NCBI GenBank assembly: GCA_018399355.1
Contig: JAGYOA010000001.1
Span: 1-49,740 of the forward strand
DNA from: Candidatus Woesearchaeota archaeon
GTDB lineage: Archaea > Nanobdellota > Nanobdellia > Woesearchaeales > CG1-02-33-12
Direction of reading: 5' to 3'
DNA: 49,740 nt
The notes under the pieces are model-generated. The model was not told the origin of the DNA. It searched no databases and saw only the letters and a program-made list of their open reading frames with translations. The position numbers were made by a program, and so were the translations under genes. This document shows, one piece after another, positions 23,428 to 45,900 of this stretch (positions are counted from its first letter, which is position 1; each line of letters starts with the position of its first letter).

Positions 23428-23499
23428 TTTGTGTCTACTCTAAAGTAAAATTAAATAAAGATTGATTAAAATAATTGATTAATTAAACAAAAGTCAATT

Positions 23500-23548
23500 A
23501 AAAAACCTGATAAAAATAAAAATTAATTAAAAATTAAAAAGAAAAAGG
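23500..23548 (-). terminator. Oligo-T (archaeal intrinsic) terminator region after the major pilin gene
   Basis: Several T5-T6 runs on the minus strand immediately downstream of the stop at 23552 (plus-strand A runs at about 23501-06, 23537-41, 23543-47). Confidence 0.4.
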
Positions 23549-23551
23549 TAA

Positions 23552-24079: not shown

Positions 24080-24133
24080 TTTATCTCCTCCTTTTTAATT
24101 AAAATTGATTATATCCTTTTAATTATCTATTTG

Positions 24134-24143
24134 TTATATAAAG
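24134..24143 (-). promoter_or_regulatory. TATA box of the major pilin gene
   Basis: Minus-strand CTTTATATAA about 55 nt upstream of ATG 24079, followed by SD GGAGGAG (24085-24091). Confidence 0.55.
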
Positions 24144-24156
24144 TTTTCGTTTTCAA

Positions 24157-25191: not shown

Positions 25192-25817
25192 ATGTTCACC
25201 ATTGGTCTTGATGATTTAATTAATGATATGAAAAAAAACTGCACTACTCCAAGGAAAAAAAGCACTACAAAGAGGTGAATCATTGTTATCTCAAGCTCCA
25301 TAAAACTGGATAGTATAACAATCATTGTAATCCCAAGTGAAGGCATAACGCATGCAATTATCATATAAAACATGACCAAAGAGTTAAGCTTTTTTCCGTA
25401 TTCTTTTATCTCTATTATCTGGTCTTCTGTTATCTGTTTTAGTGTTGCTTTTAATGGGTTAACTACCTCTGCTCCTGTTTTGAGGGCTGTTATTATCTGC
25501 CAAATTATTTTATTAAAGCTTTTAGAAGCATTATACTTTCTTGCTTTCTCAAGAGCTTCCTCTATTGGTGTTCCAGTGCTTATATCATCTACTATTTCCT
25601 TAAAGAATCTTCCTGCAATTCCATATCCTTTTGAAGCATCAATAAGGGCATTAAAAAGAGGAGTTCCTGACTCAAGCTTTACCAAAAGATATCTTCCAGC
25701 AAACAAAACTTCTTTGTTTATTTCACGTTCCCTCTTTCTTATGTAAACCTTAGGAGTGTTTAAAACAAAAAAGAAAATAAAAATTAAAGTAAATAAAAAA
25801 ATAAAGGGAAGTGTCAA
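25188..25817 (-). CDS. Type II secretion system F-domain membrane protein (TadB-like); 5' end uncertain
   Basis: 'LFAGRYLLVKLESGTPLFNALIDASKGYGIAGRFFKEIVDDISTGTPIEEALEKA' is T2SSF-like. The track start is a TTG at 25817, but the frame stays open up to 26000 (see finding). Confidence 0.75.
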   Translation of the reverse strand: MTLPFIFLFTLIFIFFFVLNTPKVYIRKREREINKEVLFAGRYLLVKLESGTPLFNALIDASKGYGIAGRFFKEIVDDISTGTPIEEALEKARKYNASKSFNKIIWQIITALKTGAEVVNPLKATLKQITEDQIIEIKEYGKKLNSLVMFYMIIACVMPSLGITMIVILSSFMELEITMIHLFVVLFFLGVVQFFFISLIKSSRPMVNI

Positions 25818-26012
25818 AAAAGAACCCCTTTGGCTTTCTATGATTACAAAAGAAAAAAAGGTTACTGCAATTGCAGATGAAAAAGAGAGCAGTATTGACC
25901 TTTTAACAAGCTGTTTAGGAGTTATATTTATGTGAGCAATCTTTATATCCTCCCTTATTCTAGGGAATGCTCTTACTATGATATTAACTAAATCTATTAT
26001 TTATACCGCCTC

Positions 26013-27470
26013 TTAATGTTTTAATTTTTTCATGTAATACCTTGCAAATATCAATCCAACCTGGTGGATATTGCTTATATTATTTTTTACAAGCCATTTA
26101 AGGATATTTATTTTTTCGTTGATATCTTTTCTTATCTCATCTGGAGTCAATCCTGTATAAAGGTTTATTGTTTCTATTAAAACCTTTGACTCGCTTATTT
26201 GATTCATCTCATCTTTCTGGGCATTAAGCTGTAAAATAACATTTGGCTCTCCGCTTGGAAGTATTTCTGCTATTTGAAGTGTTCTTCTCTTGCCAACACG
26301 CCTATCTCTATGCTGTACAACTATCATTGAAAGTGCAGGAAGCATCATTTTTGGAAGGTTTATTGGCTCGTTTGTCATTCTCACTACAGTTTCGTGGGCG
26401 TTGTTCGCATGTAATGTTCCATAAACTGAATGTCCTGTATGCATTGCCTCAAAAAGAACCTCTGCTTCTCTCTTCCTTCTGATTTCTCCAACAACAATTC
26501 TATCCGGCCTCATTCTAAGCGAATTAACCAATAAATCAAGCATTGTAACCTCTCCCTTGCCTTCTGGATTAGGCAGCCTTGTTTCCAATGGCACCCAGTG
26601 AAGTGAGTCAGGAAGAGTAAGCTCTCTTGTATCCTCAATAGATATTATTCTCTGGTTTGGAGGAAAAAAGTTTGTTATGACATTAAGCATAGATGTTTTT
26701 CCAGAGCCTGTTCCGCCTGTGATAAGGATAGAAAGCTCGTTCTGCACTGCAAGCCATATCAATGCTGCAGCATAATATGAAATGGTATTAGTTCTTAAAA
26801 AATCAGTAATTGTCCATGGCTTTTCAGCAAACTTTCTTATGGATATTGTGTTACCCATAGTAGAGATAGGAGTTAATGTTGCATTAACTCTGTCTCCTGT
26901 TGTCAGGCTTGCATCCATCAAGGGATTCAAGAGAGTTATTTCTTTTCCGACATCCCTTCCAATCATAGTTGAGTAATGTCTTATCTTTGATTCTGACTGT
27001 ATGAATATATTTGTCTTAAGCCAACCATGCTTCCTGTGGTAAATCCAGACAGGCTCTCTTGCGCTGTTTACAACTATATCCTCAAGATTATCATCTCTAA
27101 GAAGTATCTCAATATTTCCAAGTCCAATATTCTCCTGTATAAGGTAATTTAAAAGAAGGTCGGCTGTTTTTTTGTCTATTTTAGGAAAATACTTTTTAAT
27201 AAGAACCATTATCTCTTTGCTAAACTTATTTTTTATATCTGTTGGATTTATGGTATCCTTAAGCTTAACATCAGATATGTTTATCTTGGAAACAAATTCA
27301 TCTCTTATCTTATGCAAGATTATGTCTGTTATCTTGCTTATATTCATAATAGAAACACTATATGTTGGAACAAAGTCATTTCTCTTGAGATATATCTCAA
27401 CATTAATTTCAATATTATTTACTGTAAGCTTATAAGAGTCTATTTTTAATTTTTCTTTTTTTTCTTCCAA
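26013..27470 (-). CDS. PilB/FlaI/VirB11-family type IV pilus assembly ATPase
   Basis: Walker A 'GGTGSGKTS', 'PDRIVVGEIRRKREA' (Walker B/Asp box region), His box 'TGHSVYGTLHAN'. TTG start 5 nt after SD GAGGTG (27476-27481). Confidence 0.92.
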   Translation of the reverse strand: MEEKKEKLKIDSYKLTVNNIEINVEIYLKRNDFVPTYSVSIMNISKITDIILHKIRDEFVSKINISDVKLKDTINPTDIKNKFSKEIMVLIKKYFPKIDKKTADLLLNYLIQENIGLGNIEILLRDDNLEDIVVNSAREPVWIYHRKHGWLKTNIFIQSESKIRHYSTMIGRDVGKEITLLNPLMDASLTTGDRVNATLTPISTMGNTISIRKFAEKPWTITDFLRTNTISYYAAALIWLAVQNELSILITGGTGSGKTSMLNVITNFFPPNQRIISIEDTRELTLPDSLHWVPLETRLPNPEGKGEVTMLDLLVNSLRMRPDRIVVGEIRRKREAEVLFEAMHTGHSVYGTLHANNAHETVVRMTNEPINLPKMMLPALSMIVVQHRDRRVGKRRTLQIAEILPSGEPNVILQLNAQKDEMNQISESKVLIETINLYTGLTPDEIRKDINEKINILKWLVKNNISNIHQVGLIFARYYMKKLKH

Positions 27471-27489: not shown

Positions 27490-29277
27490 TTATGGCGGCT
27501 TAGGAGGTTCTATTTCAGCACCTTCATCTTTTTTGAATATCCTATAAAAAGGTTTTTTTTGTTTTTTAGTTGATTTAATATCTTTTGGCATTGGCAATGG
27601 ATTTTTTTCATGTTTTTGCCTTGGCGGCATAGGTGGAATCTTCATCTCTGGATTTTTCAGTATTTTTGGTTGAGGTTTTTGCAAAGGTTCTCCTGTTTTC
27701 ATTTTTGGAATTGGTCTTTGATTTTTTAAACCATAATCAATTTCGCTGGAATTAGGAAGAATCATCTCCTTACTATCATCTCTTAAGCTTTCCTTAAGCT
27801 CAGGCATATTTATGCCTATTTTACCAGTTGAGTCCATATTTGATATATCCTTATAGAAAGAAAGTATTCTTGTTCTCAATTCTGTTTTTTTCTGAAGAAA
27901 TCCAGAAGGAAGAGAATTATATGTGTTGATTATTTTATTGTAAAGCTCATGTGCAAGATCATACCTTTTATTCTTGACATGGCTGAATGACTCTTTAAGC
28001 ATATTCTCTATGATATTATACTTTTTGTTAAAGTCATAAACAGAGGTTTTGTCAAGCTCTATTGCAAGCCTTTCGTAAAGGTTAAGCATTATTCTCTGCA
28101 GTTCTGTTTTTTGCCTTAAAAAGCCCTCGGGCATGCTGTAAAAAACCTCTTTCATTTTAGAATATATCTCTCTTGCAGGTTCAATTTCTTTTTTTTCAAG
28201 GTGTTTGTTCATATCTCTAGAAAGCTCCTCTATCCTTTCTGTCTTTTTTTCCATATCTTCCATTGTTATTCTTTTGTAATCAGAAAGGAGCTGGTCATAA
28301 AGTCTTAATATCCTTGACTGCAATTCAGCTTTCTCCTGCAAAAATCCAGATGGGAGGGTATTGTACATTTCCCTTATCCTCGTGTAGAGTTTTATAGCCA
28401 ACTGAATATTTTTTTCTTTTATTGCCTGGTTCATCTCTTCAAGCATAGTTATTATTTCTGTCTTTTTTTCAGATATATCCATTAAATCTTTTTTTTCTCT
28501 TACAGTTATTAGCTCTTCATATGCATCAATTATACTGTTTTGAAGTACAAGCTTTTGTTCAAGAAAACCATTTGGAAGCTCATTATATCTTTCTTTTATA
28601 TCTCCATATATCCTTATTGCGCTTACTATATTTCCCTTTCTTATTTCACTCTGAATGTCTCCAAGCAATTTATGTATTTCCTGCGAATTCTTCTCCATCT
28701 TTCTTCTAGACTCTTTGCTTAGATTCATACCAAGGTCATCGCTTAGCTTAACAAGGTTCTGGTTTATAGAATCCTTTTTTTTAAGAAACTCTTCAGGCAA
28801 TTTGTTGTATCTTGCCTCTATCTTTGAATATATTTCCTTTGCCTTTTCAAATTTTTTCTTTTTTATGCATCCATATGCTTCTGCAAGAAGTGTTTCAATA
28901 TCTGATGCATCATTCTTCTCAGAAAATTCCACTTCATTAGGATCATCATCTTTACTTTCCTCTTTTTTCTCGCTTTTTTCTTTAATTATTTTGCTTGGCT
29001 TTTGTTTTGTTTTATTTGTTTCTGGCTTTTCTGTGAAAACTGTTATAAAAGGTGTTGTAAAATTGTATTTTATAGACAAAACATTTTCTTCTTCAAGAAA
29101 GTTTGCCCAAGATTCAATTGTAGAAGGATCTGCACCAAGAGCTTTCGCAGCGTCATCAAAAGAGATTTCACCCCTTTGCTTGACAAGTCTAACTAGCTCG
29201 TCTGCTTTTGTCTTTACAACGTTCACCTCTTTTTCAAACCTGTTTAAGAGATCTTCGTCTTTCAACTCAGGCTTCAT
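27490..29277 (-). CDS. Hypothetical protein: N-terminal wHTH-like domain, five ~74-aa helical repeats, Pro/Lys-rich tail; first gene of the pilus operon
   Basis: Repeat cores 'YNKLPEEFLKKK','YNELPNGFLEQK','YNTLPSGFLQEK','FYSMPEGFLRQK','YNSLPSGFLQKK'. TATA-like CTTTAAATATC (29299-29309) about 27 nt from the ATG. Confidence 0.75.
   Translation of the reverse strand: MKPELKDEDLLNRFEKEVNVVKTKADELVRLVKQRGEISFDDAAKALGADPSTIESWANFLEEENVLSIKYNFTTPFITVFTEKPETNKTKQKPSKIIKEKSEKKEESKDDDPNEVEFSEKNDASDIETLLAEAYGCIKKKKFEKAKEIYSKIEARYNKLPEEFLKKKDSINQNLVKLSDDLGMNLSKESRRKMEKNSQEIHKLLGDIQSEIRKGNIVSAIRIYGDIKERYNELPNGFLEQKLVLQNSIIDAYEELITVREKKDLMDISEKKTEIITMLEEMNQAIKEKNIQLAIKLYTRIREMYNTLPSGFLQEKAELQSRILRLYDQLLSDYKRITMEDMEKKTERIEELSRDMNKHLEKKEIEPAREIYSKMKEVFYSMPEGFLRQKTELQRIMLNLYERLAIELDKTSVYDFNKKYNIIENMLKESFSHVKNKRYDLAHELYNKIINTYNSLPSGFLQKKTELRTRILSFYKDISNMDSTGKIGINMPELKESLRDDSKEMILPNSSEIDYGLKNQRPIPKMKTGEPLQKPQPKILKNPEMKIPPMPPRQKHEKNPLPMPKDIKSTKKQKKPFYRIFKKDEGAEIEPPKPP
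27841..28899 (-). repeat. Five degenerate ~74-aa protein repeats (period 73-75 aa) inside CDS 27490..29277
   Basis: The conserved aromatic of the 'YNxLPxGFLxxK' core falls at residues 157, 231, 305, 380 and 453. Confidence 0.8.
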
Positions 29278-33215: not shown

Positions 33216-35342
33216 ATGTTGAGGAAAAGAGGCCAGGTAAGCGTATTTATTATTATAGGGATTCTGTTAATTCTTTTTGTTGGCATAGCTTTGTTTATAA
33301 GATCAATTATAACAGAAGACACAGAGCAGCAGCCAGAGGATATCCCCTCTGAATTTTATCCTGTAAAAATTTTTATTGAGCAGTGTATAAGCAGGACTGC
33401 TTCTGAGGCAATACAGCTGATAGGTGAATCTGGAGGTTATACAAACTTAGATGAGTTTGGGATAACACATACATCTGACCCAACAACATCTCAGGCAGTT
33501 CAGTTTTCTCCTGAAAGCTCTTTGAATGTTGCATACTGGTGGTATCTTAAAAGCTCGAATGACTGCTCAGGAAACTGTGAGTTTTCATCAGAGATGCCCT
33601 ACTTAAAAAGTGAATATGATAAGGGAGAGGAAAGGTCTTTTATGGATTCCTCTGTTGAGGCCCAGATTGATAGATATGTAAATGAAAACTTAGAAGAATG
33701 CTTGAATAATTTTCAAGATTTTGAAGCGCAGGGATTTACAGTAACAAAACTTGGCAATGTAACAGCAACAACAACTGTAAGAGATAAAGATGTTCTTGTT
33801 TCAGTGGATTACCCTATTGAAATAAAAAAAGGAAATATTAATTCAAAGCCCTCAAAATTCTTTACAGAAATTCCTGTGATGTTAAAAGATGTTTATGAGC
33901 TTGCGTTTATGATAACCAGTGATGAAATAAACTATCATTTCCTTGAGATAAACACTCTTAACTTAATATCTGCCTTCTCTGATATAGATGAGAATAAGCT
34001 GCCCCCCATGGCAGGCTCTGAATTTCAGTTAAAAGCTCCAGTCTATTGGACAAAGCCAGATGTAGAAACAAAAATTGAGGAAATGCTTATGAGCTATATT
34101 CCTTTATTGCAGGTTAAAGACACATTGAACTACCAGGACAGAATTTCAGGAGACACTATAAAAGACGGAATATATGAGCATATGACGATTCCATCATATG
34201 GAGATAATTACAAAAGAACTGCATCTAATTTCGCTTACCTTGGATGGTGGAGTATATACTTTGACATAAACTCGAGATCTGGATTAATAATGCCTGAATC
34301 AGCATCCTCAAACTTTCTGCCATTGGACATAGGAATACAAAGATATGACTTTTCATATGATATTTCATATCCTGTTGTTGTAACATTAAACAGCCCAGAC
34401 TCTTTTAATGGAAAGGGCTATTCATTCAGATTTGCTCTTGAAGCAAACATAAGAAATAATGAGCCAATGAACTCTTCATTTATTTCATTGGAAAGTTTTG
34501 GTGAAGAGCAATCAATGTTCTGTGATATAAACAAGAGAAACAGCGGAGATATTACAATAAAAACATTTGATGCACAGACAAAACAACCTATTGACAAAGT
34601 TATGGTTTATTACTCATGCGGACAAGAGTCATGCTTTATAGGGCAGACAGAACTAAAAGACAATCAAGCTGTTCTTGAAACAAAACTTCCAATATGTGCA
34701 GGAGGAACTATAACTTATACAAAGCCTGATTACATAGGATATTCGCAATTTTTAAGCACAGAGGTTGATGAAAGCGCAACACTTTCTTCTGTTAATCTTG
34801 AGCCAATAGAAATAAAGAAAATAGAAGTTAAAAAGAAGAATCTTGTTAAACAAGACGGATCATGGATTTTCCAGAATAATCCTTTATCTTTATCATGGGA
34901 TGAGCAGGCAATAATCTCTCTTGAAAGAATAGGAAAAGAAGGCGAGGAAGAATTCACAGCTGTCGCTGAATTCAAGGGCGGCCAATCAAATCCTTCTGAG
35001 ATAAGGATAGCCCCTGGAAAATACAAGGTTAATATCCAGCTTATGCTTGACAGCAAAGTAGTTATTCCTGAAAGAACAGAGAAGATATTGGGAATTATAC
35101 CAATAGCAAAGGTTCCTGAGATTGAGCTTGAGCCATATCCTGCAGGAGGAGTAATCTTTGATGAAAACAATGCATTTGAAATAAAAACAACAGATCATAA
35201 TACAATTGAGTTTTACAGCCTTTATGTTGATATTCCATCAATACCTCTGTCACAAAGAACTCATAAAGATATTGAAGAAACAGGAAAGATAGAGGATTAT
35301 TCAAAATACTACAGAAAAAGCCTGGAGCCAAGTTTAAGATGA
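33216..35342 (+). CDS. Cassette A gene 1: large (~708 aa) protein with pilin-type class III signal peptide; paralog of 41071..42972
   Basis: 'MLRKRG|QVSVFIIIGILLILFVGIALFI'. I prefer ATG 33216 over GTG 33201 because the TATA TTTATATATA (33177-33186) lies only 15 nt from the GTG. Shared motifs with the paralog are listed in the findings. Confidence 0.75.
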   Translation: MLRKRGQVSVFIIIGILLILFVGIALFIRSIITEDTEQQPEDIPSEFYPVKIFIEQCISRTASEAIQLIGESGGYTNLDEFGITHTSDPTTSQAVQFSPESSLNVAYWWYLKSSNDCSGNCEFSSEMPYLKSEYDKGEERSFMDSSVEAQIDRYVNENLEECLNNFQDFEAQGFTVTKLGNVTATTTVRDKDVLVSVDYPIEIKKGNINSKPSKFFTEIPVMLKDVYELAFMITSDEINYHFLEINTLNLISAFSDIDENKLPPMAGSEFQLKAPVYWTKPDVETKIEEMLMSYIPLLQVKDTLNYQDRISGDTIKDGIYEHMTIPSYGDNYKRTASNFAYLGWWSIYFDINSRSGLIMPESASSNFLPLDIGIQRYDFSYDISYPVVVTLNSPDSFNGKGYSFRFALEANIRNNEPMNSSFISLESFGEEQSMFCDINKRNSGDITIKTFDAQTKQPIDKVMVYYSCGQESCFIGQTELKDNQAVLETKLPICAGGTITYTKPDYIGYSQFLSTEVDESATLSSVNLEPIEIKKIEVKKKNLVKQDGSWIFQNNPLSLSWDEQAIISLERIGKEGEEEFTAVAEFKGGQSNPSEIRIAPGKYKVNIQLMLDSKVVIPERTEKILGIIPIAKVPEIELEPYPAGGVIFDENNAFEIKTTDHNTIEFYSLYVDIPSIPLSQRTHKDIEETGKIEDYSKYYRKSLEPSLR

Positions 35343-38300
35343 TAAAGAAAATATCTGCAATTTTTGCAATAATGCTAATACTTATGCTTCCTATTTACAG
35401 CGCAAACGTCTTTGCCTCAATAAATAATGTTAGGGTTTTTGGAAATGATCAGCTAGAAGGTTATAGAAGAGAAGACGATTTAACATACGTGCTTGCAGAT
35501 GTATCTATAAGCGGGGATGATGCAATAAATCCTGAACAGGTTTTTTTCAATAATCAAGAATTCAGCAACTGCATGGCATCAGGAGATTATTTTACCTGTG
35601 TTTTAGGATTAAACAAAAATAAAATAGAGCCAAAAACACATTCTTTTACCATAAATCTTAAAGATAAATCAGGAAAAACAGTTGACACATATACAAGTAC
35701 TTATGTTGTTGATGCAAAAGCCCCTTTAATAACAAGCTTTATTGTCTTGCCAAAAGTCACAAAAAAAGGAAATCTAACAGTAGAGTATAATATAAGAGAC
35801 TATTCCTATGAATCAAATCCAGGGTCGGGCATTAAAAAAATTGTTATTTGCAAAGATGACCTTGCAAATATTGTAAAAGAAATAGAAATAAACGGAACAT
35901 CAAGTCTTGATGCAAGAAAGCTCAGCTTTAAGACATCTGATTTTATTGAATCAACAGGTTCTGCTGATGTATGTATAATAGCTTATGATATGTTAGGACA
36001 GGCATCTGAGATGAAATGCGAAAAGCTAACTGTTGACGAAAAAAGCCCCGAGATTAAAACGGATGCTTTTCAGATAACTGATTCTTCAGGGAATGAAATA
36101 GATTATATATCAACAAATCCTGTATCAGCAATAGTTGCTGTTGAAATTGAAGACGAATCTCTTGCAAAGGTTACTGCTGACTTATCTGAACTTAATAGCC
36201 AGGCATCATACAAAAACATGGAAGCAGAATGTATTAATAATGATAATCTTTATGAATGCGCATGGCCTGTAACAATAAAGCTTTCTGATTCTGGAAAAGT
36301 AAGCATAAAAATAACAGCAGAGGATGCTGTTGGAAACAATGCTGAAAAAACAGTAAGCCACACTTTCAAGTTTGATAAAACCGGGCCTGTAGTTAAATCA
36401 ATATCAAACATTATAGAAGAGGGAGAAATAAAATATTTAGGCAAGAATAATAACCTGGTTTTAGAAATCGAAGAAAAAGATTCAGGGTTAAACCTTGAAA
36501 ATGTTTGGATAAGAATAGGAAGCTCAAACATAAAAACAGATGAATGCGTTCAAGAAGGAAGCAGTTGGAATTGTTACTTTAATGATGTAAGTGTAAATAG
36601 CGCTGATGGCTCTTCTGTTGTTGTTTCAGTAAGCCCTGACTCAAAAGATGATGTTGGAAATAAGTTTGACTTAAGCAAAGGAATTTCTTCTGAAACTTTT
36701 GTAATGGATTCAAATGCTCCCCTCTTAATTGGTGAGATTGAAATAACAAAGATTGGAAACCATTCATACAGTGATATGTATGAAACAGATGAATTTGCTT
36801 CAGGAGACAAACTTAATATAAAAGCAACCTTAAATGAAAAATCAAAATTAACTGCTAAAGCTGATCTTTCTGCAATAGGCTTTGGAAAAGCTGAGCAGGG
36901 TTCATGCTCGCAGCAGGAAAACAATTGGGTTTGCGAATGGAATATAGGGCCTATTGCATCCGGCCCAATAAAAGGAAATCTTAATTTTGAATTTACTGAT
37001 ATTGTTGGAAACACTGCTGAAAAAACAGTGCCCATTAATGTTTTAGGTGTTTATGATGAAGAAAAACCTGATTTCTGGTATGTTGAAAAAATTGAAAAGA
37101 TGCCCAAGGCAATTGACAGGCAGACAACTGAATTGATAACACATAAACAATATGTGCATGTAAGCCTTAAGCCAATATATGACAGATGCGGAACTTCAAT
37201 CTTGGCAATGGATTTAGAGTGCACAGGAGACACAGGATACATAGAAAATTATGAGCTAATTAATGAAAACTCAGAAGATCCTTACATTGTTGTAACATTA
37301 AGCCAGCAGGAAATGCCTGAAAACTCATTGTCATTAAACTGCAATCTTCTTATAATATCAAAAATCTGCGGAGATACAATAGCCGCAAATGTTGAGGAAG
37401 AACCGGTTAAGTTTACAGTTGATTTTTACAATATGCCTCTTGGTGAAGTAAGTGATAATGTAAAAAACAAGATAAAAGAGGCTCAGGACAGCTGGCTAGT
37501 GCAGCAAGAATGGATAGGAGAGCTTGAGAAGTGGATAACATATGCTGAAAAAATATGTGGGCTTTTTGGTACATGGAACAAGGTTAACCAAGCATTGGCA
37601 AATGTTGAAGCATTGCTTGAGGTAATTAAGGTTCCAGGAATATCAGACGCAATAAAAAATAGTTTTAAGGAAACCACTAAAAAAAGCGTTGATGCATATA
37701 AAAAATACTATTTCAACCAAGACACAGGTGAAGAAGGAATTGGATTCAAAGTTTGTAAGTATATTTCGTGTGATCAGGGATTGTGGGGAGACTGGTATAA
37801 TGAAATAATATCAGAGCACAGCAAGCCGTTAGGTGAAAGCGGGTTTACTGCAACAATATGGCCCTCAAGTCCAAAAGACAGCCTTGTTTTAAGCCTTGCA
37901 ACTGGTTGCCTGCCGGGAATAGTGCATAACATGCAAAAAAGAAGGCAGGTTGAATGCTATTATGTGTTATGCCTGAAGAATGCAGCTGTTGAGGGAGTTT
38001 CGCTTTATGTTTGTGATGAGCAGAAAGCCTATCTTGAATGCATGTTTATTTACGGAGAGATATTCCAGATAATTCCATTTGCAGGTTTTTTCAAGGGACT
38101 TGTCAGCAATGTTCAGACAATATTTGCTGACCCTATAGGAATGATATTCGCAGGAATAAACTTTTACTGTGATATGCAGCCAGCAGGAGCGCTCCATGCA
38201 GGATGTGTTATCGCCCATTTGGTTCCAACTTTAGCTGAGATAACTGAAGATATAGCAGGCTTTGTTGATACAGAGAGCTGGCAGGTGGGTGATGTTTGCG

Positions 38301-38419
38301 AGGAAGCTTTAAAGCCAGTAGATGATTTAAATATGAAGTTGGGCCAACAGCAAGAAAGATCAAACCAAGAAAACACAACAGACCAAGAAGACAACCAAGA
38401 CGAAGGTGAAAATGAATAA
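35339..38419 (+). CDS. Cassette A gene 2: giant secreted protein (1026 aa) with Ig-like repeats plus a Cys-rich C-terminal domain
   Basis: Sec signal 'MIKKISAIFAIMLILMLPIYSANVFA'. Recurrent Ig-domain boundary motifs 'VDAKAPLITSF','DEKSPEIKT','DKTGPVVKSI','DSNAPLLIGE'. ATGA overlap with gene 1. Confidence 0.8.
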   Translation: MIKKISAIFAIMLILMLPIYSANVFASINNVRVFGNDQLEGYRREDDLTYVLADVSISGDDAINPEQVFFNNQEFSNCMASGDYFTCVLGLNKNKIEPKTHSFTINLKDKSGKTVDTYTSTYVVDAKAPLITSFIVLPKVTKKGNLTVEYNIRDYSYESNPGSGIKKIVICKDDLANIVKEIEINGTSSLDARKLSFKTSDFIESTGSADVCIIAYDMLGQASEMKCEKLTVDEKSPEIKTDAFQITDSSGNEIDYISTNPVSAIVAVEIEDESLAKVTADLSELNSQASYKNMEAECINNDNLYECAWPVTIKLSDSGKVSIKITAEDAVGNNAEKTVSHTFKFDKTGPVVKSISNIIEEGEIKYLGKNNNLVLEIEEKDSGLNLENVWIRIGSSNIKTDECVQEGSSWNCYFNDVSVNSADGSSVVVSVSPDSKDDVGNKFDLSKGISSETFVMDSNAPLLIGEIEITKIGNHSYSDMYETDEFASGDKLNIKATLNEKSKLTAKADLSAIGFGKAEQGSCSQQENNWVCEWNIGPIASGPIKGNLNFEFTDIVGNTAEKTVPINVLGVYDEEKPDFWYVEKIEKMPKAIDRQTTELITHKQYVHVSLKPIYDRCGTSILAMDLECTGDTGYIENYELINENSEDPYIVVTLSQQEMPENSLSLNCNLLIISKICGDTIAANVEEEPVKFTVDFYNMPLGEVSDNVKNKIKEAQDSWLVQQEWIGELEKWITYAEKICGLFGTWNKVNQALANVEALLEVIKVPGISDAIKNSFKETTKKSVDAYKKYYFNQDTGEEGIGFKVCKYISCDQGLWGDWYNEIISEHSKPLGESGFTATIWPSSPKDSLVLSLATGCLPGIVHNMQKRRQVECYYVLCLKNAAVEGVSLYVCDEQKAYLECMFIYGEIFQIIPFAGFFKGLVSNVQTIFADPIGMIFAGINFYCDMQPAGALHAGCVIAHLVPTLAEITEDIAGFVDTESWQVGDVCEEALKPVDDLNMKLGQQQERSNQENTTDQEDNQDEGENE

Positions 38420-40202
38420 AACTAAACTTGCAATCACATTGATTTTGTTTATGCTTGTAGTTTCAGTTAGTGTTATGGCTGATGAATGGCCAAAGGTAGA
38501 AAAAATAAGTGATGGAAATTTCAAAATAACATACGAAAATGGAGTATATTATGAAATTAGTAATAATGATTATGGTTACTTAGTTGATGATATAATAATT
38601 AAGTTAAGTAAAATAAAACCAGACGAAGAGTCGCCATCAATCACACAACAGAGAGGTGTTTATTTTGTAATATGGACGGAAGGAGGAATATTTAAAAAAG
38701 AGAGTATTCCTCTGACTAATGTAGATCCTGAAACTTTAATTAATTTTAATATGGAACAAGCAGATGTACCACAAGAAGAAGAACACCAAACCGAAGAAGA
38801 AATTAATGAAAATGCTGGAACATCAACAGAAGAAGAAGAACACCAAACCGAAGAAGAAATTAATGAAAATGCTGGAACATCAACAGAAGAAGGAGAAACC
38901 CCTAATGAAATAGAAAACGATTTGGCAGGTATAATAAACAAAGATTCTTATAATTTTATAACAGGAACTCTTAAGGTTAATAAAGAAGATATTTTAATAG
39001 ATGAAGAGAAAAGAATATTACGTTTTAAAGTTGACCCACAAAAAGCTGATCCAAACTCAGATGAGCAAGATTATGAGGTAACTATAAAAACTGATGAAAA
39101 TGGGGGAGTAATCGAAAAGAATTATATAAAAGAGTTAGAGGATGGAGGAATTAAGGTTAGTACATATAAGGCTGGTGAGAAGAATCCTGATACTATAATA
39201 TTTAATAAAGATGGATCAATAAGTAAAGATACACTTCCAATAGAACCACTCCCCAATACTGTAGTAAGTGAAGAAATGGAAGAGCAAATGAATAGGTTAA
39301 ATTCAGAAAGATTACAGGCATATCAAGCTATACAGAAAACATCTTTTATTAATGAATTGAATAGATTGGTAGAAAAATACAAGGAAGGCGGAAAAGAAGC
39401 ATTTTCAGAGGATGAAGAAGAACTACTATTCTTGAAGAATGCAAAAAACATAGCAAAAAATAAGTATGGTATAGATGAGAATGACCTTACCTACGAGCAA
39501 AAAGTGATAATAGAACATGCATCTCAGACATATGCTGATATATTTTATGATTCTGTCAGGGCCGCTCGTGGAGGAATAGCTCTCTCCAACTTATTAAACA
39601 GCTGGCTGGACTGGGATTTTATGATGGGCTGGAGAAAGAAAAGTGATGAATTCTTTTCACAGACAGTTATTGGAAGGGTAATAAGCGGAAGATGGGAGGA
39701 AAGCTTATGCCATAAGCATATTGACAGGATTCCAAACAATGTTGCTGTTGTGAATGTTAATGGTGTTATGGGATTTGCATCTCATATTGAAGGAGAAAGA
39801 AGCGAATCAATAGCAACAAATAATCAAACAATATACTTTTACAAGATAACCTTCGCTGTAAATCCGCAAATAGACAAAGAAATAAAATTTGAAATATTAA
39901 TTGATGGCAAGAAAGCAGACCTTGATAATGATGGAAAAGCAGATACAATAACTCTTAAGCCAGGAGAAAGCTATAGCGGGACAGGAGAAAATGCAATAGT
40001 CCGTTATAAAGATAAGATTTACAAGAAAGTATGTATTAAGTTTTATAACACAGAAAATTTAAACAAGGAATTCACAAGCTCTCTAAAAGACAACAAACTA
40101 TGTAACACAATTGTTGAAACATATGTAGCTCCAGGAAGCATATCAAAGCCAGCAGAAACAGCAGCTGGTTCTGGAACAGCATCATCATCAGATGCGTGGT
40201 AA
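38406..40202 (+). CDS. Cassette A gene 3: secreted protein (598 aa) with acidic tandem repeat
   Basis: Signal 'KLAITLILFMLVVSVSVMA'. Overlaps gene 2 by 14 nt (GTG 38406; alternative ATG 38412). Its C-terminal ~200 aa resemble an internal part of 42977..47017. Confidence 0.75.
   Translation: MKMNKTKLAITLILFMLVVSVSVMADEWPKVEKISDGNFKITYENGVYYEISNNDYGYLVDDIIIKLSKIKPDEESPSITQQRGVYFVIWTEGGIFKKESIPLTNVDPETLINFNMEQADVPQEEEHQTEEEINENAGTSTEEEEHQTEEEINENAGTSTEEGETPNEIENDLAGIINKDSYNFITGTLKVNKEDILIDEEKRILRFKVDPQKADPNSDEQDYEVTIKTDENGGVIEKNYIKELEDGGIKVSTYKAGEKNPDTIIFNKDGSISKDTLPIEPLPNTVVSEEMEEQMNRLNSERLQAYQAIQKTSFINELNRLVEKYKEGGKEAFSEDEEELLFLKNAKNIAKNKYGIDENDLTYEQKVIIEHASQTYADIFYDSVRAARGGIALSNLLNSWLDWDFMMGWRKKSDEFFSQTVIGRVISGRWEESLCHKHIDRIPNNVAVVNVNGVMGFASHIEGERSESIATNNQTIYFYKITFAVNPQIDKEIKFEILIDGKKADLDNDGKADTITLKPGESYSGTGENAIVRYKDKIYKKVCIKFYNTENLNKEFTSSLKDNKLCNTIVETYVAPGSISKPAETAAGSGTASSSDAW
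38775..38888 (+). repeat. Perfect 2 x 57-bp in-frame tandem repeat (19 aa 'EEEHQTEEEINENAGTSTE' x2)
   Basis: Direct comparison shows 38775-38831 is identical to 38832-38888. It lies inside CDS 38406..40202. Confidence 0.9.
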
Positions 40203-41034
40203 AATGGATTATATAAAACAAAACATAAAATTATTGATGGAAAGCTTTAAGCTAAACAAAAAAACATGGAGCATAACTGCTGCCTATGACTTAGTTTTAA
40301 TTTTAATATCATATATCCTGCTGTTTTTATGGTCTTTATGGATGACATCATTTCTTTCAAAAATAAACCTTGATGTTTCTGCATTAACAGAAGAAACAAT
40401 AAGAGATGTTGCTTCATTAAAAAGTTTCTACTACGGAACCATAATCTCTTTATTTGTTCTTGCAATATTTCTCTTTTTTATCTGGTGTTTTTTTAAGGGA
40501 ATATTATGGTCTGTTATATTAAACAAGCATTTTGATTTGAAATACTACAGCAGGTTTATTTTGCTTAACCTGACCTGCATTCCTTTGTTTATTATTCTAT
40601 TTTTTATTTTTCTGCTTATTACCCAAATAATAAACTATTTGATTTTTTTAACACCTGCATTGATGCAAAATAACTTAATAGCAGTTTTAATTACTTCACT
40701 GATATTTTTCATTGTATTTATGCCTATTATAGTTTACATGATGATACTGCCTTCATTGGTTTATTATTATTTTACAAAAAAGAATGATATGGTCTTCTCT
40801 TTCAGCAAAATGTTTGATATAGCAGTAAGGAAAATCCATCTCTTCTATGTTCCATGTCTTCTGATAACCTTTGTTTTTGTATTGATCTCAATTATAACAA
40901 TCCCATTAAGAGTTCTTCCTGAATCAATAATTTTCCTGGTTTTTCTTTTGATATTTATTTTCTACATTGCATGGGCAAGAATGTATATAATCTCTTTTAC
41001 TGAATCATTCAGCAAAAATCACCACAAGATTTAA
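40192..41034 (+). CDS. Cassette A gene 4: ~6-TM integral membrane protein; paralog of 46956..47807
   Basis: Six hydrophobic segments, e.g. 'LVLILISYILLFLWSLWMTSFL', 'IISLFVLAIFLFFIWCFF', 'IIFLVFLLIFIFYIAWA'. Start is ATG 40192 (11-nt overlap) or ATG 40204 (1 nt after the upstream stop). Confidence 0.7.
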   Translation: MRGKMDYIKQNIKLLMESFKLNKKTWSITAAYDLVLILISYILLFLWSLWMTSFLSKINLDVSALTEETIRDVASLKSFYYGTIISLFVLAIFLFFIWCFFKGILWSVILNKHFDLKYYSRFILLNLTCIPLFIILFFIFLLITQIINYLIFLTPALMQNNLIAVLITSLIFFIVFMPIIVYMMILPSLVYYYFTKKNDMVFSFSKMFDIAVRKIHLFYVPCLLITFVFVLISIITIPLRVLPESIIFLVFLLIFIFYIAWARMYIISFTESFSKNHHKI

Positions 41035-41070: not shown

Positions 41071-42972
41071 ATGAAAAAAAGAGGTCAGGTAACTGTATTT
41101 ATTATACTAGGAATTTTCATTCTTATCGGGATAATACTATTTTTTTATCTTAGGTTAAATACATCTATTTTCACTCCTGATGTTGTTGTTCCTCAGCAGG
41201 TTGCCCCTCTTAAAAGGTATGTTGAAAGCTGCGCGTATGAGATAGGCAAGGAAGCAATAATAACAATTGGAATACAGTCAGGATATGTTGAAATTCCAGA
41301 GCAGATATCAATGGACCCTGATGCATATATTCTTGTTGGAGGCCCAATAAAAACCCCTTACTGGCATCTTCATGGAGAAGACATCTCTCCTACCATAACA
41401 GATATTCAGGAACAGATATCTGATCATGTATCTAAAAATCTAAAGCAGTGCCTGAAAAACTTTTCTGATTTTGATGAATTTGTAATAGAAGAAAAAGATG
41501 AACTTACTGTGAAAACAACAATTGCAGAAGAAGAAGTAGTGATAAATCTGGATTATCCTTTGATAATAAAAAACAGAAAAGGAGACAAGATAACAGAATG
41601 GTCTTTGTACACAAGCTCTGTTCCTGTAAGGCTAAGAAAGATATACAGGCTTGCAAAAAACCTCATGAATGCGGAAAATAATGATATGTTTTTTGAGAGA
41701 AAAACAATAGACCTTATGGCCCTTGACCCAGAGATACCTTTCACTGATATGGAGTTTTCATGTTCTAACCTTGAATGGAGCAAAACAGAAGTTAAAAACA
41801 GTGTCCAGGAATTATTGTATTATAATCTTCCAAAGATAAGAATTGACAGGACAGACTATATACCCTTCCTTCATCCTGATCCAGTATACAGAGAATTTCA
41901 AAAAATAGATATTGAAAATGATGAAATTCCAGATAATATCCCTGAAGATATATATGAATACAACCAGTTTTTCTGGAAGCCTTTAACTGAGGGTTTCAAT
42001 GATATGAAAGTGGGTGTAAGATATATGAAGGACTGGGGAATGCATTTTGAGGCAAGTCCAAGCGACGGTGATTTGATGAGCTCAAATATGGTTGAGGGAT
42101 CTTCAGAATACTTAAGCATGCTCTGCATAAATATTTATCATTTCACTTATGATATAATTTATCCTGTTGAAATAGCAATAAGGGATGAAAAATCATTTAA
42201 TGGAGGGGGTTATGTTTTCAGATATGCTTTTCCTGTTTTAATAAAGCAAAACAGCCCAGACAGGTCTGATTTCAAGGTTAGTTCTATTGATGCATACACA
42301 GATGCAGGGTTCTGCAGTGAAATTACTGAAGATGAATATGTAATACAGGCGAGAAACTCAAGAACCCAGGAAGAGATTGACAATGTAAGTATCGTATTTG
42401 AGTGCGTAAAATATAAATGCAGTCTTGGATTTACAGAATCAGATGCAAACTCATACCGCCTTAAGACAGCTATACCTTCTTCCTGCACAAATGGAATAGT
42501 AAAAGCAAGCAAAGAAGGATATTTAACTGATGAAAAATATGTAACAAGCAGAAATGTATTGCTTGAGATGGATCCTTTAAAAAACTTTGATTTCAAGGTT
42601 ATGAAGGTTGATAAATCAGGACAAAAAACAGAACTTGCCAATGATGAAACAGCTGCAATATACATAAAATCAGCTGAAAAAGATTATAATGTTTTTGCAG
42701 TATATCCTAAACAAGAAGATATGGAATACATAGAGCTAATTGATAACAAGGCAAATTACCAACTTGAAATTTTCCTTATGAATGGCGATGATTTAACAGG
42801 AGGCTACAATGCAGAATGGAATGTTAGCTATTCTGATATTAATGGAAAAAGAAAGATTTTGTTTTATGTTTATGATATTGGAAAAGCAGAAACAAATGAT
42901 AAAAAAATAGAGATGGTTAGCTTCCTTAATGAAAACAAGAATAATGAAGATCTAATACCCAAGTTTAACTAA
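41071..42972 (+). CDS. Cassette B gene 1: large (~633 aa) protein with pilin-type class III signal peptide; paralog of 33216..35342
   Basis: 'MKKRG|QVTVFIILGIFILIGIILFFYL'. ATG 41071 lies about 30 nt downstream of the TATA-like AAATATATATTA (41033-41044). The track uses GTG 41062. Confidence 0.75.
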   Translation: MKKRGQVTVFIILGIFILIGIILFFYLRLNTSIFTPDVVVPQQVAPLKRYVESCAYEIGKEAIITIGIQSGYVEIPEQISMDPDAYILVGGPIKTPYWHLHGEDISPTITDIQEQISDHVSKNLKQCLKNFSDFDEFVIEEKDELTVKTTIAEEEVVINLDYPLIIKNRKGDKITEWSLYTSSVPVRLRKIYRLAKNLMNAENNDMFFERKTIDLMALDPEIPFTDMEFSCSNLEWSKTEVKNSVQELLYYNLPKIRIDRTDYIPFLHPDPVYREFQKIDIENDEIPDNIPEDIYEYNQFFWKPLTEGFNDMKVGVRYMKDWGMHFEASPSDGDLMSSNMVEGSSEYLSMLCINIYHFTYDIIYPVEIAIRDEKSFNGGGYVFRYAFPVLIKQNSPDRSDFKVSSIDAYTDAGFCSEITEDEYVIQARNSRTQEEIDNVSIVFECVKYKCSLGFTESDANSYRLKTAIPSSCTNGIVKASKEGYLTDEKYVTSRNVLLEMDPLKNFDFKVMKVDKSGQKTELANDETAAIYIKSAEKDYNVFAVYPKQEDMEYIELIDNKANYQLEIFLMNGDDLTGGYNAEWNVSYSDINGKRKILFYVYDIGKAETNDKKIEMVSFLNENKNNEDLIPKFN

Positions 42973-42976
42973 GAAA

Positions 42977-45900
42977 ATGGAAAAAACAAAAATATCAGCA
43001 CTATTCATGATAATGCTAATTTTAATTATACCTTTTTACACATCCTCTGTTTTTGCCCAGGATGAAACAGTTGTTGATAACACTCCACCTTCAATAAATA
43101 TAAAAAATCCTCCTAGTGAAGTAACAGAGCCATTTTTGGATATAGAGGGAACAACGAATGAGCCAGTTATAATTGAAACAACAATAAACTCTAACTTGTA
43201 TAGCACATTAAGTTCAAACCAGGACAACACATTTAAAATACCAATAACCCTGAATGAAGGAAAGAATATAATTGAAATTAAGGTAACTGATGCAGGAGAA
43301 AATTTTGTTGTTAAAGAATTTGAGATTTATTGCGATTCCCAACATCCCCAAATAATGTACAATAACATACATGAGCTTAGTCCCTCATATGTTTCAAAAA
43401 GAACTGTAAGGGGAACAGTAAACAAGCCAGAAATTGATATTGAGGTTTATGTAGGAGATAAAAAATATTCTGGAAAATCTGATTCCCAGGAAACTTCAGA
43501 AGGAATGTATGGTTTTGAAGTGGATATATCTCTTGAAAGAACTCTTAATATTGATGGAACCGGAACAGTAACAACACAGGAGGATAATGTATGGCAAAAT
43601 CCAGTAAAGATAGTTGCAATAGACAACTATGGAAGAAATTCAACTGCGGAAGGAACAATAATTTATACGTTATGCGGATATGGGCATGATTGGGATGTAA
43701 GAACAACAAAAGTTACTCCTGAAGTTATAATACCTGAGCACCTTATAATGGGAATTGCCCAGTTCAGTTTCTCAGCAAATTTAAGCTATTTAGGCAATGC
43801 TGAATCAAATAAGGTTATTATAACAAGCCCTCCCCAGATCACAAGATATGACTTAAGTCAAGCAGATATGGAAGATGAAAAAGGGATTATTTTCAAGGAA
43901 AAATACTATCAGGAACTTTTCAACAGTGCAACGCCTTTCTGCAATGAAGATAATGACGTTTGCTATTTTGTTGTTAATCTTAATTCCTGGCCTTACACAA
44001 GAGAAGAGCTTCAGAATGTTACATTCATAAAGATACCATTAAGGATGGATATATACTATGAGTATGAGGATATCAACGGTAATATAATTGACAACAGCCA
44101 GAGAAACTGCTGGGATATAGAAATAATGGTTGACAAGGAGATTCCTCTTGATAAGATACCTAAAAATCTGCTTAACAAATCAATTAACTTTCTTAACAAA
44201 AGCATTGATTTAATTGATACAATAAGAAAACCTATTGAAACTGTCAAAAAATATACTTTTGTTGCTTGTATTGGCTCATGGGCAGTTCATTTCTTTAAGT
44301 CAATAAGTGTTGAGTTTTCATGTGTTGGAGTAAAAGGAGATGCAATCCCTGCATTGATAAGAGGAGAGGAAACATGTACCACACAAAATATGGATGATGA
44401 AGGAAATTTACTTGACTGTGATGCGTGCCTTCAAAATCTTAAAGAGTTAAGGGAAATTGAAAAAACAAGAAACTGGATATGTGACAGAATATTCTGCCCT
44501 AGTGTACCGACTCTTGACTACCACAAGCAAACGTATGAAGACAGTGTGACAAAGGTAAACCTTTGCAAAGGAGTAGAGGGAATGGAAGGAATACTTGACG
44601 AAGAAGACTGTGAAGAAGAATACAAAAGAGCATGGGATTCTGCATTTTTAATGCTTGATGAGTGGGAAAGGGCCACAGCAGAAGAAAATGAAACAACAGA
44701 AGGCTTTTTTGATATGATTTCAGAAGGTTTGCAGTTCTGCAAAAGAGCAAACGAGCAGACAACGCAGGCCATAACAGTAGGCTCAGGAAGCAAGCAGGAA
44801 ATTTATATAATAACAGAAAAGGGAGATATAATCATGGCCTCAGAATGGGCAAAGTTAGAAGATGTTAAAGAGGAAAAACAGGGTGTTGAAGTACAAGAAG
44901 GCCAAGAACAAATATACTATACTTATGACACAGGACAACCATTAAAAGTAGATGAAAAGGGTTATTTCATTTATAACGGATCTCCAAATAATTTTTATCA
45001 GAATAATAAAGAGGATCATATCTATGTTTGCCCTGATGATAACTTTTGTAATGATGGTAATAAAGATATTACAATGATTAGTGGAAAAGAACTTTACATC
45101 AATGAAAAAGGAGAAATCCAAATTTGGGAAGATGGCACTGATGAAAAGTATGAATCTTCCAAAATTAAAGATAACAATTATAACACTCTTTATAAAGATA
45201 ATAAAGGTAACATAAATATTTATAGTGAAAACACAAGAGAAAGTGATATAAAAAGGCTTCCTCCTATTGTACAGTCAGCAAGAGGCATAGAAGGAGAAAA
45301 CAACTACATTCTTGACCCGACTTCTGACATTATAAGAAGTGTACAGGCCGTATGCCTGCCTGCTGTTTCAGGATGGCTTAACTTATGGAAACAGATACTT
45401 ACTGCAGTAAAGCAGTGCTTTGAATCAATAATGATAACTGGCCAGGGAAGCACAGGGGTTTGCAAGGCAGTATTAACAACATATGTATGTGATATAATCT
45501 ATGATGCAATAAGGTGCACAACAGACTCTTTTGCATTGGGCGCAGGCCAGAAAGCAACAGGAGGACTAGTTGGTTTTGCCCAAAAAATATCAACTGCATC
45601 AAAAGGGGTTTCTGATTCAGTCTCGTCAAGATACGGCCAGACAGGAATGTTTGATGTCATGTTCAACCAAAGAAAACTCATACACTCAAGCTGCTTGTGG
45701 GCATTTACAGGAGACTGGGGGCAGTTTGACCTTGACACTATGTTAAGCGCTGAAGTCGGAATGCCCAACCTTGGAAGCCAGGGACTGCTTTACCCCACTA
45801 CAAGAAGGTTTATTGGATCTAATCCATTAGAATACGGCAGAACAACTTATGTATATCATATCGGCGCTGGAATAATAGCTGGCTCAGACCTTAACTACAA

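Follow-up and report, generated by a model that had tools for sequence, protein, structure and literature searches.

Gene content of the locus

The window analysed here is a 49,740-nucleotide stretch of DNA from Candidatus Woesearchaeota archaeon (assembly GCA_018399355.1, contig JAGYOA010000001.1, positions 1 to 49,740 of the forward strand), and the subject of this work is a pair of its genes, A1 and A2, coding for large proteins whose N-termini resemble the archaeal prepilin-type (class III) signal. Each of them opens a cassette of closely spaced genes, A1-B1-C1-D1 and A2-B2-D2. Together the two cassettes span some 14 kb, and the secreted and membrane proteins encoded there, about 4,900 residues in total, belong to no known family. 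The DNA of the window is low in GC (31-39% G+C). The genes, found as open reading frames (ORFs), are the following.

33216..35342, + strand: A1, 708 aa, prepilin-signal protein, gene 1 of cassette 1 (ORF and translation, homologs, AlphaFold2)
35339..38419, + strand: B1, 1026 aa, secreted, with a conserved Sec-type signal, an immunoglobulin (Ig)-like N-terminal part and 26 Cys (ORF, weak Pfam matches, hydrophobicity)
38406..40202, + strand: C1, 598 aa, secreted or anchored, with an N-terminal signal only and the C-terminal 200 residues conserved
40192..41034, + strand: D1, 280 aa, polytopic membrane protein with 5-6 transmembrane (TM) segments and no Pfam match
41071..42972, + strand: A2, 633 aa, paralog of A1 (MKKRG↓QVTVFIIL, the arrow marking the predicted cleavage site here and below), gene 1 of cassette 2 (ORF, paralogy)
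42977..47017, + strand: B2, 1346 aa, secreted, 35 Cys, distant paralog of B1 (jackhmmer)
46956..47807, + strand: D2, 283 aa, polytopic membrane protein of the D1 family

Translated from the ATG at 33216, A1 begins with MLRKRGQVSVFIIIGILLILFVGIALFI (MLRKRG↓QVSVFIII; 708 aa), and A2, translated from the ATG at 41071, begins with MKKRGQVTVFIILGIFILIGIILFFYL (MKKRG↓QVTVFIIL; 633 aa). Both ORFs and both N-termini had been given in the initial annotation and are borne out by translation and by the orthologs of A1 and A2, in which the same Met is the start; the mechanical ORF calls open earlier, at GTG 33201 (..35342) and GTG 41062 (..42972), with the ATGs in frame. A TATA-like box and the sequence GAGGG are located upstream of the A1 start at 33216. 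The two proteins are paralogs with 26% identity over about 550 residues (E=7e-46), and each has a single hydrophobic segment on the Kyte-Doolittle scale, at residues 4-36 in A1 and 3-35 in A2, and no C-terminal anchor. The genes of cassette 1 overlap by 4 nt (A1-B1, at the A1 stop), 14 nt (B1-C1) and 11 nt (C1-D1); D1 is followed by a 36-nt gap with an AT-rich, TATA-like stretch of its own and then by A2, B2 (after a 4-nt gap) and D2.

The N-terminal signal of the A family

The signal was checked with a rule of our own for archaeal class III signals, and the motif counts given below refer to two samples, namely 120 word-search matches listed and 146 new representatives from a profile search. 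The corresponding parts of A1 are:

33216..33233, + strand: predicted leader MLRKRG, with the predicted cut after Gly6 and before Gln7 (family-wide junction [KR][GAS]↓Q)
33234..33311, + strand: hydrophobic H-domain from Q7 to about residue 32, with the pattern Q-x-[TS]-x-F-x-I-x-G (Kyte-Doolittle, AlphaFold2 helix 4-32, column conservation)

Of the 120 listed homologs, 114 contain the motif [KR][GAS]↓Q-x-[TS]-x-F-x-I-x-G, as do 136 of the 146 new representatives; those without it are nearly all gene calls that open within or past the hydrophobic helix. Among the motif-bearing homologs of the two samples, position -2 is Lys or Arg in 109/114 and 125/136 (about 95%; Arg in both A1 and A2), position -1 is Gly, Ser or Ala in 109/114 and 128/136, position +1 is Gln in every sequence (114/114 and 136/136), and position +5 is Phe in 108/114 and 116/136; Gly occupies position +9 in 102/114. 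In the 68-sequence alignment Gln+1 is one of just 25 invariant columns, and the fractions of the commonest residue at +1, +3, +5, +7 and +9 (1.00, 0.78, 0.96, 0.93 and 0.88) make up an alternating pattern. The leader upstream of the junction varies in sequence and in length (3-31 residues, median 7), whereas the junction and the alternating positions match the folded domains in conservation: the column entropy is 1.55 bits in the H-domain and 1.57 bits in the folded N-domain as against 2.75 bits in the leader. The junction is also kept in paralogous families which have only the first 200-250 residues in common:

A2 orthologs: KKRG↓QITVF
mini-A proteins of 244-267 aa: NKA↓QVSLFF
a 685-aa protein with a different C-terminus: RKS↓QVTLA

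The A family thus has the features of class III (FlaFind-type) signals: a basic residue at -2, a small one at -1, a permitted one at +1 and a hydrophobic domain of about 20 residues opening at the cleavage site near the N-terminus. Judged from the alignments, the conservation of the junction is well beyond chance, and since a plain anchor would be expected to keep its hydrophobicity but not this junction, the N-terminus is better described as a class III signal.

A basic N-terminus followed by a hydrophobic stretch is also what an ordinary Sec signal peptide looks like, in which case signal peptidase I would release A1 and A2 as soluble exoproteins. However, at about 25 residues the hydrophobic stretch, a single long helix in the model, exceeds the length of a Sec h-region and is not followed by a small-x-small site, and the conserved positions lie at its N-terminal and not its C-terminal edge, whereas B and C from the same operon have typical Sec signals ending with VFA or VMA. 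This explanation is regarded as very improbable.

Relation to known prepilin cleavage sites

Positions -2 (basic), -1 and +1 are the key ones for archaeal prepilin peptidases, and Glu at +5 is missing in many archaeal substrates (PMC3387779; PMC4371748). The Epd pilins of M. maripaludis are processed at KGQV, KGQI, KGQL and RAQI by EppA, which requires Gln at +1 (PMC4371748). The RG↓QV site of A1 and A2 fits these processed sites, as do the [KR]A↓Q sites of the small pilins encoded in the window, and in hhalign comparisons the junction and the helix of the A family align with the small-pilin families of the window at E values from 2e-5 to 4e-5 (probability 70-77%). The difference lies at +5, where the A family has Phe and three of the four small pilins have Glu.

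An A24 prepilin peptidase, needed by the small pilins of the window as well, was looked for in the window and in 164 loci of other genomes (numbered with the prefix L). The search yielded one gene, coding for a 319-aa Peptidase_A24 protein on the metagenome contig L107, 4 kb from a pilus ATPase gene whose product is 64% identical to the ATPase of the window. This peptidase has 2,405 homologs, the organism-named ones coming from Woesearchaeota/Nanoarchaeota and being annotated as prepilin peptidase or A24 family peptidase. One of the homologs (P0313) is located on contig JACPJQ010000004.1 of GCA_016187465.1, a metagenome-assembled genome (MAG) which on another contig, JACPJQ010000005.1 (L050), possesses an A1 ortholog starting with MKDKSNKKS↓QTTIFMIAG. 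The peptidase gene of this MAG (L165, 10001..10909) lies amid ribosomal-protein and other housekeeping genes and not beside pilus genes. The archaeal prepilin-peptidase pattern recognised in the initial annotation is thus upheld as far as the motif, its conservation, its likeness to Epd sites and the presence of an A24 gene in an ortholog-bearing MAG are concerned, and cleavage itself is what these features would predict.

Size and distribution of the family

The word-indexed search with A1 returned 382 homologs, nearly all of about 700 aa. The profile search of 1.84 billion cluster representatives returned 8,571 proteins at E<=1e-3, each standing for a cluster at 50% identity, and 1,633 at E<=1e-30. 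The only name among the word-search matches is "hypothetical protein" from Woesearchaeota or Nanoarchaeota, with no Pfam domain in any of them, and the named members of the family all belong to Woesearchaeota/Nanoarchaeia (DPANN). Searches of Pfam and NCBIfam with A1, A2, B1, B2, C1, D1 and D2 gave no match over threshold, nor did Pfam match any of the 68 aligned A-family members, and profile and single-sequence searches of PDB sequences gave no match for A, B1 or B2. A description of the family was not found in the searchable literature.

Relatives are encoded on at least 248 genome stretches including many species-level MAGs and one 774-kb complete chromosome. The closest public relatives of the window are labelled Candidatus Nanoarchaeia or Woesearchaeota, the nearest being L005, whose A1 ortholog shows 87% protein identity. 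Several family-bearing records are titled "uncultured Methanosarcinales archaeon" (e.g. L007 and L077, the latter being OZ246410.1), among them the 774-kb chromosome, and one is titled "Binatia bacterium" (L082); these titles look like taxonomic mislabels or mis-binned DPANN contigs, which for the "Methanosarcinales" records is suggested by the context and by how small the genomes are. A viral or mobile origin of the family was rejected, as no relatives were found in IMG/VR contigs and the GC content is uniform.

Predicted architecture of A1

The AlphaFold2 model of A1 was built with 68 sequences and has a mean predicted local distance difference test (pLDDT) value of 87.4. It is composed of the following parts.

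Residues 4-32: hydrophobic helix (AlphaFold2)
Residues 32-44: low-confidence Pro-rich linker (AlphaFold2; Pro44 invariant and Pro49 near-invariant in the alignment)
33348..34451, + strand: N-terminal alpha/beta domain (residues 45-412), no known-fold match (stand-alone AlphaFold2, Foldseek)
Residues 415-432: disordered stretch (AlphaFold2)
34521..34775, + strand: beta-sandwich 1 (about 436-520; strands 446-515), prealbumin/CnaB/CarboxypepD_reg-like (AlphaFold2, Foldseek)
34776..35339, + strand: larger beta domain (about 521-675; 526-672) with conserved C-terminal helices 683-703, P705 invariant (AlphaFold2, alignment)

Modelled alone, the N-domain reaches a pLDDT of 91 and a predicted template-modelling score (pTM) of 0.89, and the 68-sequence alignment reveals invariant C57, C162, E244 and D382 and many aromatic residues in it. 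Foldseek with this domain alone found nothing at E<=1e-3 in PDB (best 0.012) or BFVD, and no pilin was among the PDB top 50; a weak TcpC/NTF2-like match (probability 0.11) was not adopted. A pilin has an unbroken alpha-1 helix of about 50 residues, which packs with its C-terminal half on an antiparallel beta-sheet head. After the helix and the linker, the model of A1 has a helix at residues 45-71 and a beta-meander at 174-219, a topology compatible with that of a pilin except that the helix is not continuous. An apparent extension of the similarity with pil142, one of the pilin or pilin-like families of the window, in which the helix is followed by a G-x-G-Y turn, was dropped since it was gone once the TM region had been removed.

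With the full-length model, Foldseek matched beta-sandwich modules only, namely CnaB2 (8bdw, 95 columns, root-mean-square deviation (rmsd) 3.3, probability 1.0), carboxypeptidase D domain II (1qmu_A, 89 columns, rmsd 3.9, probability 1.0) and modules of BcpA, SpaC and SdrD, which are Gram-positive pilus and adhesin proteins; the output holds no query coordinates, and 8bdw and 1qmu were placed on residues of about 436-520 by size and strand content. The CarboxypepD_reg-like segment suggested in the initial annotation is therefore retained as a prealbumin-like beta-sandwich fold but not as a Pfam assignment: CarboxypepD_reg (PF13620) has no match in A1 or A2 at E<=1 nor in the 68 members at E<=0.01.

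The N-terminal module of about 200-250 residues is common to A1, A2, the mini-A proteins and the 685-aa protein with its unrelated C-terminus. The idea of a modular pilin (Raynaud et al. 2021), also raised initially, agrees with this fusion of one N-module to varied C-terminal parts, though no pilin head was found. A mini-A protein of 253 aa (L001, 6281..7042; NKA↓QVSLFFIFG) consists of the shared N-terminal module only, and its gene is directly followed by one coding for a 450-aa protein with a lytic transglycosylase (SLT) domain (7044..8396), which puts a prepilin-like module beside a cell-wall-degrading enzyme.

Partner proteins and conservation of the cassette

B1 and B2 show weak Ig-like matches and have no hydrophobic segment beyond the signal and no anchor; they are linked by jackhmmer through the signal peptide and the first Ig-like domains. 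The D1/D2 family (about 250-280 aa, 5-6 TM segments) provides the last gene of each cassette and has 45 members in cassette loci. The possibility that D is a dedicated peptidase or platform protein was rejected, there being no GxGD motif and no T2SSF or A24 match.

Among 84 cassette loci of other genomes, B follows A in 80, and in 40 C could be detected. Where the available stretch reaches far enough downstream, many loci have another A-type gene, and a B2-like gene was detected in 11; the A2 orthologous group occurs downstream of cassette 1 in other genomes too. Throughout the order the cassette has been retained in its duplicated form, and because the A1-type and A2-type proteins make up separate orthologous groups the duplication must be old.

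The signal peptides of B1 and B2 (35339..35420; 42977..43060) follow the pattern KISAxFxIMLILxxPxYxxxVFA and are 65% identical over 23 aa, far above the mature parts. The pattern L-P-x-Y-[ST]-x-x-[VA]-[FY]-A is also present in the signals of distant B orthologs (L001, 12308; L003, 11852) with mature parts less than 30% identical, which suggests that the B signal peptide may play a role beyond export. Fifty of the 84 cassette loci have a short ORF (MSKQIRITVSDEIDKLLSKVAKKLGKKKSMLARELMEQ..., about 55 aa) that is ribbon-helix-helix-like and overlaps with the A1 ortholog at the start of the latter (L003, 9604..9768; L001, 9834..10004). It is about 81% identical between genomes with A proteins 37% identical and is probably a dedicated regulator. 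The window and its close relatives L005-L016 do not have this ORF, metRS being directly upstream there.

The composition of the cassette brings to mind a two-component S-layer like SlaA/SlaB of Sulfolobus, with B as the lattice and A as the membrane stalk with a prepilin-like helix. B is a very large secreted protein with many Ig-like domains and no anchor, A stacks beta-sandwich domains on a membrane helix, the locus accounts for some 14 kb of a very small genome and is kept across the order, and archaeal pilus loci often hold S-layer-like proteins (PMC4858521). Against a lattice stands the maintenance of two divergent cassettes side by side, with B1 and B2 barely alignable and B proteins of anything between about 1,000 and about 2,000 aa; sequons are sparse for an archaeal S-layer glycoprotein, and no S-layer Pfam signature was found. 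An S-layer is consequently thought to be quite unlikely.

The pilus locus of the window and other neighbouring genes

On the opposite strand the window carries a type IV pilus locus, separated from the cassette by 6 kb with the metRS gene in between, an arrangement found in four relatives as well. The locus includes:

22085..27470, - strand: Epd/system-1-like type IV pilus locus with an ATPase, two platform genes and four small pilins
26013..27470, - strand: T2SSE ATPase
25188..25817 and 24157..25191, - strand: T2SSF platform genes
22527..22955, - strand: small pilin RKA↓QSSIE
22952..23410, - strand: small pilin ARA↓QASME
23552..24079, - strand: small pilin RKA↓QAAME

The small pilins which the initial annotation placed at 22-24 kb were confirmed, with the three quoted signals adjoining the T2SSE ATPase and the two T2SSF genes; all four pilins have [KR]A↓Q signals and three have Glu at +5. 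One ATPase together with two platform genes corresponds to "system 1" (Epd type) of the archaeal type IV filament (TFF) superfamily, reported in methanogens and DPANN archaea (bioRxiv 10.64898/2026.04.22.720090).

At the end of the operon (18761..20283, - strand) there are two further pilin-like genes with signals of another type, RG↓YFFTLDS (170 aa) and KG↓VFFTL (349 aa), whose products have a very high sequon density of 3.5-4 per 100 aa, and the operon also encodes a protein with VWA and CarboxypepD_reg domains (20682..22007). Just upstream of the ATPase gene (27490..29277, - strand) lies a gene for a 595-aa protein with five repeats of about 75 aa (motif Y..I...YN.LP.GFL.K..L) and no Pfam match, which accompanies the pilus locus in related genomes. 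Other genes of the window include those coding for a RuBisCO large-subunit homolog (16361..17641, - strand, E=2e-88), a secreted lamin-tail-domain protein (13165..14418, - strand) and a KaiC-like ATPase (303..1115, + strand).

Proposed role of the A proteins

The explanation we favour, with somewhat better than even confidence, is that A1 and A2 are surface proteins targeted and held by a prepilin-type signal and act as the carrier or anchor of a new DPANN surface complex. According to it, the protein would insert with the basic leader left in the cytoplasm, and an A24 prepilin peptidase would cut at [KR][GAS]↓Q after the small -1 residue, making Gln the new N-terminus. The conserved hydrophobic helix would then hold an ectodomain of about 600-680 residues, composed of the novel alpha/beta domain and two beta-sandwich domains, at the cell surface, where A may carry or anchor, in the manner of a pilin, its co-translated cassette partners, namely the giant Cys-rich B, which has no anchor, and C, with the polytopic D as its dedicated membrane partner; both the cleavage of the leader and the anchoring of B by A are steps that we infer. 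As to the helix, it might stay in the membrane as a stalk, as in the Sulfolobus bindosome, might leave it to become part of a short stalk or of a pilus tip, as with GspK or CofB, or might never be cleaved off its leader. The outcome would be a surface complex most likely serving adhesion or host contact, a role proposed because the C-terminal modules are adhesin-like, B is large and Cys-rich, and the cultivated DPANN archaea live as ectosymbionts.

A number of results weigh against this explanation. Glu or Asp at +5 was never seen in the A family (114 + 136 homologs), and with the Pfam model Class_IIIsignal (PF04021, former DUF361) the 60-residue N-termini of A gave no match (best E=7.8), a result which is uninformative because the genuine small pilins of the window miss as well (best E=0.68). 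No A24 prepilin peptidase gene was found within the 49.7-kb window; the absence of such a gene from the genome, which the initial annotation took as grounds for giving the idea up, does not hold for the cassette-bearing MAG GCA_016187465.1. In the AlphaFold2 model the hydrophobic helix is split from the globular domain by the low-confidence linker and does not continue like the alpha-1 helix of a pilin, a packing that had initially been proposed as a check. Foldseek gave no pilin-like match to the A ectodomain, and hhalign without the TM region gave a probability below 1% with the heads of six pilin or pilin-like families of the window. For the adhesion or host-contact role, the evidence would consist of the architecture and of the lifestyle of cultivated DPANN archaea.

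The remaining points concern the pilus machinery. No ATPase or platform gene is present within the cassette. Only the window and four of the 84 cassette loci (L006, L008, L010 and L011; identity of the A1 orthologs 65-68%) have the pilus ATPase and platform genes at a distance of 10 kb or less. The dominant signal type of 80 DPANN pilus loci (738 kb) is Q.[TSA].[ED], with 54 class III-type ORFs, and the strict A-type pattern was found there in two ORFs, the 711-aa one of L086 and the 269-aa one of L099 beside the ATPase gene. L095 holds a truncated A-like ORF (KRG↓QTTTF); by N-terminal sequence it and the L086 protein resemble A1 orthologs. With adjacency confined to so few loci and A-type signals nearly absent from pilus loci, the initial suggestion that A1 and A2 feed into the neighbouring pilus machinery is not supported. 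Pilus-locus synteny was rejected as functional evidence since it is restricted to close relatives. For the same reason, and because the signal type and the sequon density differ, the cassette is better viewed as an independent unit and the nearby pilus genes as local synteny; a functional link of A1 and A2 to the pilus locus would be conjectural.

Some of these results would equally be expected if A1 and A2 were type II membrane proteins with an uncleaved N-terminal signal anchor, the conserved residues of which serve packing of the helix with D or another partner. The flexible linker after the helix, the missing +5 Glu, the cassette's own polytopic membrane protein D and the lack of conserved linkage to pilus genes all agree with that, and the weak NTF2/TcpC-like match would suit a bitopic protein of the VirB8 type. 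Such an anchor, however, has no need for an invariant Gln following a basic and a small residue exactly at the hydrophobic start, it leaves the fixed junction behind a leader of such variable length unexplained, and the same junction occurs in the small pilins of the window and fits the experimentally defined EppA sites. An uncleaved anchor is accordingly judged unlikely, though less so than an S-layer.

A special case of the favoured explanation is that A1 and A2 are true structural minor or tip pilins. The tip subunit GspK likewise has no Glu5, and the missing Glu at +5 would fit a tip-type subunit such as GspK or CofB if the helix enters a filament. The window and four relatives have the pilus locus at a distance of 6 kb, the cleavage-site type is common to A and the window pilins, and modular minor pilins of the CofB type bear beta-sandwich modules and sit at the tip (PMC8179133). 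Large pilins do occur in DPANN pilus loci: an 893-aa protein with the classical signal RKS↓QAATEYILIVG (Glu at +5) is encoded in the type IV pilus locus L115 (11354..14035), in contrast to the A family. On the other hand, the adjacency is lineage-specific with a housekeeping gene (metRS) intervening, the A-type signal is essentially missing from the 80 pilus loci, no pilin head fold or homology was detected, and the pilus operon already has a VWA adhesin candidate and minor-pilin-like genes. The density of N-glycosylation sequons differs too, being 0.3-0.6 per 100 aa in A1/A2 versus 1.1-4.0 in the pilins of the operon. Incorporation of A into a pilus as a tip pilin appears rather unlikely, if slightly more plausible than the uncleaved anchor.

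It is thus more likely that A1 and A2 anchor a surface or adhesion complex in the manner of a pilin than that they are ordinary subunits of a pilus. A bolder proposal, which is tentative and in our opinion doubtful, is that the duplicated A-B-C-D cassette forms an undescribed surface apparatus specific to Woesearchaeales-type DPANN archaea, where Glu-less prepilin signals would be cut by a housekeeping A24 peptidase and assembly would proceed without a type IV pilus ATPase, perhaps with D as the platform, to give a device for host attachment or contact.

Significance

The molecules by which DPANN archaea recognise and hold their hosts are largely unknown (PMC11329633). The A family comprises thousands of sequence clusters without annotation, is kept across the order together with three partner families and takes up more than 1% of a sub-megabase genome. 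Woesearchaeota are a very diverse DPANN lineage with, to our knowledge, no cultivated model. The prepilin-type signal offers a concrete testable biogenesis route, i.e. A24 cleavage at [KR][GAS]↓Q, and a handle for metaproteomes, a mature N-terminus beginning with QxTxF. It also carries the concept of the "modular pilin" and the bindosome over to DPANN archaea and defines a Glu-less variant of the Epd-type signal which current hidden Markov models (HMMs) miss.

A prepilin-type signal on a large cargo is of an already known kind, with precedents in bindosome subunits, large Haloferax FlaFind positives and bacterial modular pilins (PMC4371748, PMC8179133). What is new here is the Q-x-T-x-F-x-I-x-G form of the Glu-less signal, the size of the wholly unannotated A family, the 370-residue N-domain, predicted with high confidence and without a structural relative, and the conserved, duplicated four-family cassette.

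Comparison with known systems

The Epd pilins processed by EppA in Methanococcus maripaludis share with A the short basic leader, Lys or Arg at -2, Gly or Ala at -1, Gln at +1 followed by Ile, Val or Leu, Ser or Thr at +3 and a hydrophobic helix directly after the site, and the window has a locus of the system-1 type as well. They differ from A in having Glu at +5 where A has Phe; A is 4-5 times larger with an unrelated ectodomain, its genes lie outside the pilus operon and it has no Pfam match.

Bacterial modular and tip pilins, namely PilB and PilC of Streptococcus sanguinis, CofB of enterotoxigenic Escherichia coli (ETEC), GspK of type II secretion and TadG of Tad pili, resemble A in combining a class III signal with a bulky non-pilin cargo and in reusing the N-terminal module with different C-terminal parts, and CofB in particular has beta-sandwich modules after its N-terminal module. 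CofB also binds the secreted CofJ, of which the co-encoded secreted partner of A is reminiscent. CofB forms a tip-exposed trimer and GspK is located at the pseudopilus tip (PMC8179133). Unlike in these proteins, no pilin module can be recognised in A between helix and cargo, its site is of the archaeal type with a basic -2 residue, and its gene is not encoded with assembly genes.

In the bindosome of Sulfolobus the cargo is a recognisable substrate-binding protein encoded beside ABC transporter genes, whereas the cargo of A has a novel fold, its partners are giant secreted proteins and no dedicated ATPase/platform pair is linked to it. S-layer stalks of the SlaB type have stacked beta-sandwiches on one membrane helix and a co-encoded, very large unanchored partner in common with A. 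SlaB, however, has a Sec signal and a C-terminal anchor, whereas the anchor of A is N-terminal and prepilin-like, and no sequence or fold match was found between the two.

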